A DNA stretch of 64,000 bases from Eledone cirrhosa (GCA_964016885.1 OZ024744.1:87668001-87732000); one strand, 5' to 3'. Shown: positions 26,527 through 35,910, counted from the stretch's first letter. The notes: generated by a model from the sequence alone, not told the origin. Made by a program: numbers and translations.

Positions 26527-28300
26527 ATAAGTATGTACACGTACATACATATATGTATACAGACGTACAGTAGTATATATATATATATATATACATACAT
26601 GCACACATATATATATATGTACGTATGGATTCACCGAACATTTATTATAATGCTCGGTGTGTTTGTAAACAAACATCCCCTATTAAGCCGTAGTGTCCAG
26701 CAACCATCGTTGCTCGTTTGTTCAACACTGACAAAGGAACGCTGCACAAGTTTCAAGCTTATTAGCTATCGTCAGCAACGTATATTTTCCTGCCAAATTG
26801 TTGAACGTATATACTTACCCTATGCATATTAACGGCTGATTTGCCCAATTTGCATATCGAGTGGGTTAATTGGCCGTCTGCACCGAAAACGATTGACGGA
26901 AAAGATGAAATGAAATGAAATTTCCGACTCTTAGTACGGCTGTTACTTAAATATAAGTATGTACACGTACATACATATATGTATACAGACGTATAGTAGT
27001 ATGTATATATATATACTTACATGCACACATATATATATACATATGTACGTATGGATTCACCGAACATTTATTATAAAGTTCGGTGTGTTTGTAAACAAAC
27101 ATCCCGTATTAAGCCGTAGTGTCTAGCAACCATCGCTGCTCGTTTGTTCAACACTGACAAAGGAACGCTGTATTAGTTTCAAGATTATTAGCTATCGTCA
27201 GCAACGTATACCTTCCTGCCAGATTGTTGAACGTATATACTTACCCTATGCATATTAACGGCTGATTAGCCCAATTTGCATATTGAGTGGGTTAATCGGC
27301 CGGGTGCACCGAAAACGATAAACGGAAAAAATGAAACGAAATTTCATTTCCCACTCTTAGTACGGCTGTTACTTAAGTATAAGTATGTACACGTACATAC
27401 ATATATGTATACAGACGTATAGTAGTATGTATATATATATACATACATGCACACATATATATATGTACGTATGGATTCACCGAACATTTATTATAATGCT
27501 CGGTGTGTTTGTAAACAAACATCCCGTATTAAGCCGCAGTGTCTAGCAACCATCGTTGCTCGTTTGTTCAACACCGACAAAGGAATTTCGTTTCATTTTT
27601 TCCGTTTATCGTTTTCGGTGCACCCGGCCGATTAACCCACTCGATATGCAAATTGGGCTACTCAGCCGTTAATATGCATAAGGTAAGTATATACGTTCAA
27701 CAATCTGGCAGGAAGGTATACGTTGCTGACGATAGCTAATAAGCTTGAAACTAGTACAGCGTTCATTTGTCAGTGTTGAACAAACGAGCAACGATGGTTG
27801 CTAGACACTACGGCTTAATACGAGATGTTTGTTTACAAACACACCGAGCATTATAATAAATGTTCGGTGAATCCATACGTAGATATATATATGTGTGCAT
27901 GTATGTATATATATATAAATACATACTACTATACGTCTGTATACATATATGTATGTACGTGTACATCCTTATATTTAAGTAACAGCCGTACTAAGAGTGG
28001 GAAATGAAATTTCGTTTCATTTCTTCAGTTTATCGTTTTCGGTGCACGCGGCCAATTAATCCACTCGATATGCAAATTGGGCTACTCAGCCGTTAATATG
28101 CATAAGGTAAGTATATACGTTCAACAATCTGGCAGGAAGGTATACGTTGCTGACGATAACTAATAAGCTTGAAACTAGAACAGCGTTCCTTGTCTACTAT
28201 ACGTATGTATACACATATGTATGTACGTGTACATATTTATATTTAAGTAACAACCGTTCTAAGAGTGGGAAATGAAATTTCGTTTCATTTTTTCCGTTTA
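26527..28300. repeat. Short array of ~426-bp hammerhead-containing units (retrozyme-like), orientation switch at ~27,583
   Basis: ATAAGTATGTACACG recurs at ~26,527, ~26,953 and ~27,379. After ~27,583 the same sequence appears reverse-complemented. Homologous to the 489-bp unit at 54-64 kb (GAAATTTCGTTTCATT, GCAAATTGGGCT, CAAGCTT..AGCTATC, TGTTCAACACTGAC). Confidence 0.92.
27720..27762 (+). ncRNA. Minimal type I hammerhead ribozyme (426-bp family, intact copy)
   Basis: ACGTTG-CTGACGA-tAGCT aata AGCTt-GAAA-CTAGTA^CAGCGT: intact CUGANGA/GAAA/GUA core, helix I ACGTTG/CAGCGT, palindromic helix III ACTAGT. Mutated sister copies at ~26,739-26,781 (-), ~27,165-27,207 (-) and ~28,144-28,186 (+). Confidence 0.85.
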
Positions 28301-28873
28301 TATATATGTACATATATATGTATATATATGTGTATATATATATATATGTATATATATATATATATATGTATGTATGTGTGTATATATATATATATATATA
28401 TATATATATACACACAGTTCAAGAGTAACCAATCTTAAAGAGAGAGATGGAGATAGTAGAGGAGATATGAGAGGAGAGATTGGCGAGTTAGTTAGAAGCC
28501 AAAGCGTAAAGGCATGTGCTCAATGTGCAATATGGTGTAGAAAGCAGCTAGGTGGCTGGGTTCATGCAGAAGTTAGGTGCGCAGAGCTGGAAATATTCAT
28601 TAGTTAAGCAAAACAAGGCCACAAACTTCACAAGGAAGACATTATTAAAAGATTGTCAACATATTTTAGTTTGATGTAAGGAATGTAGAGAATAATAATA
28701 ATAATATTAATAATAATAATGTCCGTTTACAATTGTTTCGCTACTCCATATAATATTTCTGGATCAGATGATTATATATCATAATTGATCTGCTTCAGTT
28801 GAAAATAATTAACATATTTAAAAAACAGAGTGACTCATCGGCAAAGTACAGCAATTAGATATGGATTTGCCAC

Positions 28874-34329: not shown

Positions 34330-35199
34330 CATTTTCCTGTCCTAGGGTTAAAAACCCCAGGAACGACAAAATATATGACCTCAATCCAACTAATACAGGT
34401 CTGAAAGGTCGTGAAAATGACCCGTAAATACATTGGTGTATAGTGAAGGCGGGAAATCGTAGACTAGCAGTCTATGATCGCTACTAAAAAAGATTTTTAG
34501 CAACTAAATAGAACGACAAGATTTTTCTCTATATACTGGAGAATGTTGAATAAGGTTAATATATATCTGAGGGTACAATCTACCCCCGGAAATATATAGT
34601 GTGTAAAAATTGGTTGAATTTTACTTGTTCTGCTTATCTTGATATATATATATGTATGTATATATATATATATATATATATATATATATATATATATATA
34701 TATATATATATATATAATATATATATATATATATATATATATATATATATATATATACATATATATATATATATATATATATATATATATATATATATAT
34801 ATACATATATATATATACATATATATATATATATATATATATACATATATATATATATATATATATATCTATATATATATCTATATCTATATATATATAT
34901 ATATATATATACATACATATATATATATATATATATATATATACATATATATATATATATATACATACATATATATATATATATATACATACATATATGG
35001 TCTTCCTCTTCTAGTGTATCCATGTATATATATATATATGTATATATATATATGTATATATATATGTATGTATATATATATATATATATATATGTATATA
35101 TATATATATATATATATATATATATATATATATATATATATATATATATATATATATATATATATATATATATATATATATATATATATATGCAATTAT

Positions 35200-35910
35200 T
35201 TATGTATACGTGCATACATATATGTATACAGACGTACAGTAGCATGTATATATATACATACAGGCACACATATATATATATGCACGTATTAGTTTACCGA
35301 ACATTTATTATAATGCTCGGTTTGTTCGTTTGTAAACAAACAAACAGCCTGAATTACGCCGTACGTCTGTATACATATATGTATGTACGTATACATACAT
35401 ACTTGCATTTAAGTAAGTGCCGTACTAAGAGTGAGAAATGAAATTTCGTTTCATTCTATTCCATTTATCGTTTTCGGTGCGCCTGGCCGACTGAACTCAC
35501 TCGATATGCAAATTAGGCTGCTCAGCCGTTAATTTTCATGAGGAAAGTATAGACTTTCGGACGTTCAACCATCTGGCAGAAAGGTATACGGTGCTGACGA
35601 TAGCTAATAAGCTTGAAACTATTACATCGGTCCTGTGTCAGTGTTGAACAAAAAGGTGACATGGTTGCCTAAACACTGTACGGCGTAATTCAGGCTGTTT
35701 GTTTGTTTACAAACGAACAAACCGAGCATTATAATAAATGTTCGGTAAACTGATACGTGCATATATATATGTGTGCCTGTATGTATATATATACATGCTA
35801 GTGTACGTCTGTATACATATATGTATGTACGTATACATACATACTTGCATTTAAGTAAGTGCCGTACTAAGAGTGAGAAATGAAATTTCGTTTCATTCTA
35901 TTCCATTTAT
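35200..35910. repeat. Third locus of the 426/489-bp hammerhead repeat family (short inverted part plus ~1.1 units)
   Basis: 35,200-35,358 in one orientation, 35,360-35,910 in the other. HHR ACGGTG-CTGACGA-tAGCT aata AGCTt-GAAA-CTATTA-CATCG at ~35,588-35,629 (+), helix III mutated. Confidence 0.88.

Follow-up and report, generated by a model that had tools for sequence, protein, structure and literature searches.

The closest described relatives of the repeats considered here are the metazoan non-long-terminal-repeat (non-LTR) retrozymes (Cervera and de la Pena 2020, PMC7229834), which are likewise short tandem non-coding units with one type I hammerhead ribozyme (HHR) each and a self-paired predicted circle, and for which Penelope-like elements (PLEs) have been proposed as helpers (PMC7229834). 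Insertions of PLEs have themselves been described with a tail at one end, inverted arms and (TA)n targets (PMC8557442), and the PLE tail has been described as the stretch between two internal start sites of the reverse transcriptase (RT) (PMC11167929). A 64,000-nucleotide (nt) stretch of the Eledone cirrhosa genome (GCA_964016885.1, OZ024744.1:87668001-87732000; hereafter the window) carries three insertions of one hammerhead repeat superfamily, designated A (~426-bp units), B (442 bp) and C (489 bp). Judged from its sequence, this family, with its dispersed high copy number and no coding capacity, is a metazoan non-LTR retrozyme by its testable features; over the repeats, only low-complexity, TA-derived frames reach 90 or more amino acids (aa). 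Probably, these non-coding repeats of 420-490 bases spread as a non-autonomous retrozyme, the RNA of which is copied into (TA)n by a Penelope-type enzyme from two fixed internal sites.

The main evidence for an RNA intermediate is the fixed ends of the insertions in (TA)n, rather than a base-pair swap in hammerhead helix I. Ends were counted in 184 insertions of at least 250 bp. Of their 273 outward 3′ ends, 133 fell at a long (L) site, 107 at a short (S) site and 33 elsewhere, placing 240 of the 273 at two fixed sites. The L site is found 273, 286, 340 and 302 nt after the cut in A, B, C and a further type, D, respectively, with the S site 54-74 nt before it, and TA repeats follow 209 of the 240 fixed ends. 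Both ends were at fixed sites in 71 insertions, 69 of which combine one L with one S (the others being one L+L and one S+S), and this rule is obeyed by all three insertions in the window. In A, the left arm (26527..27585, minus strand, ~2.5 units) has an S site adjoining TA repeats as its outer end, and the right arm (27584..28301, plus strand), which contains an internal deletion at 28193/28194, runs out at the L site into (TA)n. Similarly, both arms of B end in (TA)n, the short left one (35187..35364, minus strand) at the S site and the right one (35361..35910, plus strand), which comprises 1.25 of the 442-bp units, at the L site. The left arm of the C array (54197..60740, minus strand, ~13 units) has the L site in (TA)n as its outer end, and the right arm (60738..64000, plus strand) continues 3,191 bases beyond the window to end at the S site, again in (TA)n. 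The (TA)n target, the inverted 5′-truncated arm and the one-end tail are all present in insertions of the repeat.

The arms were analysed in 67 two-armed insertions of up to 4 kb, among which one pair of rows was duplicated. Their inner ends were spread round the unit, with 5 of 134 near the cut site where about 4 were expected, and the idea that arms stop at the ribozyme cut was rejected for this lack of enrichment. Both arms ran through the cut site in 43 of the 67 insertions, a figure inflated by the fetching of the loci through the hammerhead. Insertions are mostly of 1-3 units and lie on many contigs. The C array, however long, is uniform: 20 of its 24 full units are identical, including an internal TA tract, across both arms, and five C arrays differ from one another by 4-19 substitutions (mean 10.7). 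A single circular monomer copied repeatedly would be the simplest account of this uniformity. A fold-back artefact of the assembly was rejected for the C array, which has an L site at one outer end and an S site at the other and no mirror symmetry at its junction.

Across the searched genome (3.0 Gb in 1,796 contigs), an exact 30-nt core pattern gave 24,602 matches of the A/B/C/G type and exact patterns for the D and E types gave 11,058, with no match to the reversed control in either case, and the total of ribozyme matches exceeded 35,000. Relatives of A and B at 97-99% identity occur on many contigs. Units throughout the family measure 420-496 nt and stand in tandem with one type I HHR per unit. 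A sample of 204 merged regions (1.0 Mb) yielded 180 insertions with a hammerhead; 132 of these were A/B/C-like and formed 10 subfamilies of at least three members, leaving out 11 singletons, and the other 48 were D insertions falling into three subfamilies, so that the family comprises at least 13. The HHR pattern had served to fetch the loci behind several subfamilies, and a hammerhead descriptor contributed to the finding of D. In the subfamily tree, G lies near the centre (3.7% mean divergence from its own consensus), with A8 and A1 (~2.2% divergence) on one side and B20, B19, B18, C14 and C13/C15 forming a ladder on the other; the ages of A1, B19 and C13 are biased low, as many members were fetched as best hits. 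It follows from this tree that B precedes C, and that A is a side branch and no ancestor of C. A reading of positions 26527-35910 made beforehand from the sequence alone (the sequence-only reading) had taken A and B for older subfamilies. This holds for the insertions, which contain 54 substitutions in 1,777 bp (A) and 14 in ~730 bp (B), compared to the 20 identical units of 24 in C; as a statement of descent it fails, since the U·G pair of A was derived within the A branch from a G·U ancestor.

The same reading had proposed that these units preserve hammerhead pairing through double substitution, and most of its description proved accurate. The ~426-bp head-to-tail units (26527-28301) and the related copy at 35187-35910 are diverged from the 489-bp unit, with 73-84% identity over long alignments. 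The hammerhead of A reads ACGTTG CTGACGA TAGCT AATA AGCTT GAAA CTAGTA CAGCGT and that of C reads ACGGTG CTGATGA TAGCT AACA AGCTT GAAA CTAGTA CATCGT, and the reported changes at N7 (C in A, T in C) and in loop II (AATA against AACA) are real between these two. The swap of G·U to U·G in helix I is likewise present in A (ACGTTG/CAGCGT compared to ACGGTG/CATCGT in C), but not in B, which has ACGGTG like C. Nor is the HHR kept in all of these units, as only one of the five hammerheads in the interval is intact, namely the type I motif of A at 27720..27762 (plus strand, predicted cut after 27756), in which helix I contains the U·G pair, the palindrome ACUAGU forms helix III and the helix II base is occupied by U·U. 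The remaining A hammerheads have decayed at 26739..26781 (minus strand; cut site GUG, helix III broken), 27165..27207 (minus strand; helices II and III broken) and 28144..28186 (plus strand; helix II broken, U16.1 lost), and in the B hammerhead at 35.6 kb (35588..35630, plus strand), which has G·U in helix I as in C, helix III (GAAACTATTA) and the last helix I pair (CATCGG) are broken. Beyond the window, copies of A and B are mostly intact. Among copies that were not used as search anchors, broken hammerheads were found in 14 of 37 for A, 8 of 16 for B and 1 of 39 for C, and 10 of 685 core sites were changed compared to 311 of 12,562 outside (p=0.097). With the core rate this near the outside rate, the decay of inserted copies runs close to the background rate. 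Selection on the subfamily-founding RNA, followed by decay of the inserted copies, would thus leave four of the five hammerheads in the interval broken.

No match was obtained with Rfam at the gathering score, and at E≤10 no hammerhead family was among the 150 of 188 matches listed; matches to microRNA (miRNA) families were rejected as TA-repeat noise. The ribozyme call therefore draws on motif and covariation. The type I core (CUGANGA, GAAA and UH) together with helices I-III is intact at 27720-27762 and in every subfamily consensus. At the base of helix II, the position of the usual G10.1-C11.1 pair holds U·U in A, B, C and G and C·A or C-G in E, with G-C only in D. Such a short type I build, like the palindromic helix III and the U·U at the helix II base, has been described for metazoan hammerheads that act as dimers (PMC7229834, PMC4209133). 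In folding predictions, a designed dimer of the present motif reached approximately -19 kcal/mol compared to approximately -1 for the monomer, the lowest-energy fold of the dimer being a different one.

The inference drawn beforehand, that the ribozyme was selected in the source copies and that the family spreads through RNA and not as passive satellite DNA, is supported in its conclusion, though not by the double-substitution argument given for it. What carries it is the placement of the changes, the covariation seen when D is included, the rarity of the mismatched intermediate and the insertion ends. The comparison of divergence inside and outside the HHR gave a marginal result only, with 9 changes in the HHR on the tree compared to 14.4 expected (P=0.09). 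Between A and C, the raw pairwise difference was 4 of 43 sites in the HHR and 57 of 281 outside (p=0.059), and out of six pairwise subfamily comparisons one fell below 0.05 and one was reversed. The outcome that the sequence-only reading had named as speaking against itself, an HHR no more conserved than the rest of the unit, is therefore close to what raw divergence gives, but not to what the placement of the changes gives. The weakness of the raw test stems from free HHR positions, which change fast, and from the promoter block and hairpins outside, which are conserved too; the promoter block and a long TA-rich hairpin equal the ribozyme in conservation. Greater conservation of the ribozyme than of the rest is a weak test where the whole RNA is under selection.

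When the changes were placed on the tree of the 10 subfamily consensuses, none fell in the 11 core sites and six in the 10 free sites, while the 22 helix sites took three, with all pairs kept, and the 265 outside sites took 89. Disruptive changes in the HHR numbered zero where 9.2 were expected at the outside rate (P(0)=1e-4, or P(≤1)=1e-3 when the transient mismatch of the swap is counted). Restricting the test to five subfamilies first met in the window or in blind-picked regions gave an expectation of 7.7 disruptive changes (P(≤1)=0.004), the consensuses of G and E including copies fetched by the HHR pattern. In 13 real copies, D among them, 156 of 156 cells were paired and 6 of 12 pairs had changed on both sides, a level reached by none of 500 shuffles; the swapped helix I position takes four pair types (G·U, U·G, A-U and U-A). 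The swap itself is one event on one branch: G9 and A8 differ at 10 of 321 columns, and the chance that two of these fall on one HHR pair is approximately 0.01, rising to approximately 0.09 if every pair of the unit is allowed. Genome-wide, the intermediate U·U state has 142 exact copies, whereas 9,710 copies match the U·G form with at most one mismatch. Thirty U·U copies were fetched; their backbones are of the A1, A8, G and B types, and most of them have a paired copy as neighbour. Given these mixed backbones, they have the appearance of later point mutants and form no lineage. An amplified U·U intermediate subfamily was rejected, the copies being few and scattered over mixed backbones. The G·G state was seen in one copy (locus L333), a count confined to the fetched loci.

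Compensatory change extends beyond the hammerhead. From 10 real copies, RNAalifold predicted 78 pairs, 10 of which were doubly changed; one of these lies in the hammerhead and nine outside the 43-nt HHR, six of them in a single hairpin ~110 nt downstream. Helix I is predicted to extend into a long stem on the sense strand only (z of -2.7 and -3.3, compared to approximately -1 for antisense). Random placement of the same substitutions costs 15-33 kcal/mol of predicted circular folding energy on average, and both A and C gave better energies than all 40 random placements. On these predictions, selection is likely to act over the whole fold of the subfamily-founding RNA, beyond the ribozyme alone.

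Every subfamily has a TATGCAAAT(T/G)(A/G)G box 74-94 nt before helix I. In the window, this U6-like box (TATGCAAAT..) is found with a TATA-like element upstream of the A hammerhead (27645..27695, plus strand), where it is a candidate internal promoter, and likewise in the B copy (35505..35555, plus strand). All three distinct U6 promoters whose flanks are intact have a TATGCWAATKAG-type box, located between -76 and -78, and a TATA at -30; in two further U6 array copies the box is replaced by an insertion, and seven other U6 matches lack it and look like retrocopies. None of three U2 genes tested had the box within 400 nt, and a U2-type polymerase II promoter was rejected for want of a common box. 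Runs of 4-8 T lie near or at the L end in all subfamilies, and polymerase III would be expected to terminate at such runs. As side observations, the interval separating the TATA-like element from the extended helix is 8 nt shorter in A1 (window 27688-27720), which would shift a U6-type start to the edge of helix I, and U6 copies at three fetched loci (L289, L290 and L285) start directly after (TA)n tracts or another element, which suggests retroposed U6.

Two PLEs in the window served as comparators, and their names, Neptune-like and Hydra-like, are clade assignments made on motifs such as those described in PMC8557442. The 3′ part of the Neptune-like element (49160..50852, minus strand), which has a hammerhead of its own (49541), shows, like the repeat, two fixed ends in (TA)n, here ~58 bp apart, and the same spacing of ~58 nt in (TA)n holds for its family. 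The decayed Hydra-like element (28388..31904, plus strand), which lies outside the repeat family, has a left arm in inverted orientation and, in (TA)n, two fixed ends with a spacing of 205 bp, and in the two Hydra-like copies examined the fixed ends, one per arm, were 205 nt apart. The Neptune-like family is abundant, with 33,243 first-look candidates; among 126 that were scored, identity was 95-100% and several frames exceeded 1,150 aa, and one frame of 1,240 aa lies between complete pseudo-long terminal repeats (pLTRs). By target and tail length only, this family is a candidate partner of the repeat. A sequence search for a partner returned only low-complexity or 12-21-nt matches. Pfam gave no family at E≤0.01 for the 1,240-aa frame and GIY-YIG only below the cut-off (E=0.001) for the Neptune-like piece in the window, and a PDB search with the Hydra-like RT piece gave no match. 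The pLTR of the Hydra-like element (28388-31904) also contains a hammerhead-like motif with the core CCGAUGA (U4C) and an insert of ~100 nt in helix II, and a short piece resembling a short interspersed nuclear element (SINE) lies within the element at 31694-31790; a 91%-identical relative is present in locus L093.

Taken together, these features are compatible with a cycle in which the repeat would be transcribed from the U6-like box and the RNA would cleave itself into monomers, probably as a dimer formed through the ACUAGU palindrome. The monomers would then be ligated to a circle, an endonuclease would cut in (TA)n so that both DNA ends could prime, and each enzyme would run round its template to give tandem arms. 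A bolder form of this proposal, which we consider less likely than not, is that a viroid-like circle with its own U6-type promoter, diversified into at least 13 subfamilies selected on the whole fold, may be recognised by the PLE through structure alone, without pLTR ancestry, with two RTs rolling round one circle from both (TA)n cut ends. If this is true, the genomic copies constitute a dated fossil record of compensatory RNA evolution, including its intermediates.

Several points weigh against a self-cleaving RNA that is mobilised by a Penelope-type enzyme. The usual G10.1-C11.1 pair is missing in A, B, C and G, the predicted fold of the monomer buries C3-G5 against helix III, and of nine retrozyme dimers predicted in Xenopus, eight were reported in one study to have failed to cleave. 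Raw divergence of the HHR is only marginally below that outside (P=0.09 to 0.15), and five of the six doubly changed pairs come from one long branch, that to D, which was itself found partly via a hammerhead descriptor, so that the events are few. For B, 1 of the 40 random placements was predicted to fold better than the real sequence. The distance from box to TATA is ~42 nt in the repeat and 46-48 nt in U6, i.e. 4-6 nt shorter, and the polymerase III stop expected before the next ribozyme is left unexplained by the model. Neither ~1 Mb of masked loci nor four nearly full-length Neptune-like copies showed any sequence likeness between the repeat and PLE pLTRs. Finally, a purified PLE protein was reported to insert in vitro without HHR cleavage, with unprocessed RNA as its main substrate (PMC11167929). 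This last result favours an explanation we regard as unlikely, by which the repeat is Penelope-mobilised but copied from long uncleaved linear array transcripts, the hammerhead only freeing or maturing the RNA and circles being no template. A weak ribozyme, to be expected from the U·U and a two-pair helix III, speaks for it, as do the T-runs that every subfamily has close to its L end or at it. The window array, however, would then need a transcript of many kb passing through ~27 ribozymes, its units are identical within the array and across the arms but different between arrays, and the strict conservation of the core implies cleavage in the source RNAs.

The compensatory changes spanning the whole predicted circle could instead indicate that ribozyme and fold are kept for a second RNA life, in which the RNA replicates from RNA or serves the host and retrotransposition is only a side effect, and RNA-RNA replication has been suggested for mussel retrozyme circles unmatched by genomic entries (PMC7229834). 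This we consider very unlikely, given that the unit has no antisense ribozyme motif, that the antisense HHR region folds no better than shuffles (z of approximately -1, compared to -2.7 and -3.3) and that the succession of subfamilies resembles ordinary source-gene turnover. Passive satellite DNA spread at the DNA level, in which a hammerhead inherited from an old element has been kept by chance, would fit the existence of long homogeneous arrays and the non-significant raw conservation test, but it is contradicted by the fixed L and S ends in (TA)n, one each per two-armed insertion, by the prevalence of 1-3-unit insertions over many contigs and by the lack of a disruptive change in any subfamily, which make it scarcely credible. 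Retrozyme spread through a Penelope-type enzyme remains the reading we prefer. How animal retrozymes move, and whether their ribozymes matter, has been proposed and little tested. The present family offers dated copies in the tens of thousands, compensatory changes placed on a subfamily tree, defined RT start sites and an array of very recent origin, and the same genome holds many Penelope-like copies of one family, some with open frames of full length. Cleavage, circle templating and the choice of partner thereby become directly testable.

Other repeats in the window and fetched loci were recorded alongside. An 85-bp satellite at window 1-25181 has ~299 copies in the window and extends at least 10 kb further left (fetched locus L092). 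Short palindromes with TA repeats at their centre or flanks (window 32284-32809, 35918-36467, 53541-54001, 37559-37683 and 45776-46027) are probably two-armed relics of other families, and a 336-bp direct repeat of 97.6% identity (33101-33436 and 33706-34041), which ends in (TA)n, is likely to be some other element in partial tandem. Unrelated elements contribute further hammerhead-like cores, mostly near TA repeats, at 37062(+), 37787(-), 39506(-), 43710(-), 45316(+), 49541(-) and 51673(+), and dozens more core types are present in the fetched loci. A 310-bp retrozyme unrelated to the family, whose hammerhead is built alike (an AAYA loop, the palindrome ACGCGU and U·U at the helix II base), also ends in (TA)n (L263:1-560, L223:2130-2900). 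The TA tract in which the C array ends on the right also contains, immediately beyond that end, an older G-type copy (L091:3275-4034), and retrozymes and PLEs often occupy one common microsatellite.

Compared to the known systems, the repeat shares the U·U at the base of helix II with HHR_Amex2 of the axolotl, which is described as cleaving better as a dimer (PMC7229834). That work shows RNA circles and describes no insertion ends, whereas here the ends, arms and subfamily history were read from the genome. Li, Clavereau and Pollet 2026 (bioRxiv 10.64898/2026.07.22.740005) likewise present non-LTR retrozymes as non-autonomous partners of PLEs, their evidence in Xenopus being co-occurrence and pLTR homology, with arrays ascribed to local amplification; the sample studied here, in contrast, has no pLTR homology but a PLE footprint, and its arrays look like single insertion events. 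In pDo500 of Dolichopoda crickets (Martinsen 2010, PMC2837043), the comparison that the sequence-only reading proposed is already in print: stems I and II of the hammerhead are reported to carry compensatory changes, its conservation to exceed that of the remaining unit and the non-ribozyme part to be significantly freer, and retrotransposition is not argued in the account given there; in Eledone, the rest of the unit is constrained too. The endonuclease-positive (EN+) PLEs Neptune, Hydra and Naiad (PMC8557442) and PAc (PMC11167929) are likewise described with (TA)n or AT-rich targets, partial tandems, an inverted 5′-truncated arm, a one-end tail and two RT start sites, but they encode RT and endonuclease and have a tail of 30-40 nt, while the repeat encodes nothing and its tail measures 54-74 nt. 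Hammerhead repeats with an internal promoter are known likewise from newt satellite 2 and Schistosoma satellites (cited in PMC2220036 and PMC6765202), the newt promoter being described as of small nuclear RNA (snRNA) type for polymerase II and the schistosome one as polymerase III, whereas the box in Eledone matches host U6 and not U2, at a shortened spacing. Literature searches, to which most subscription papers and supplements were beyond reach, returned no published account of two-armed retrozyme insertions or of a U6-type retrozyme promoter. The repeat is a member of the known animal retrozymes, to which the subfamily history and the selection test are what is added here.

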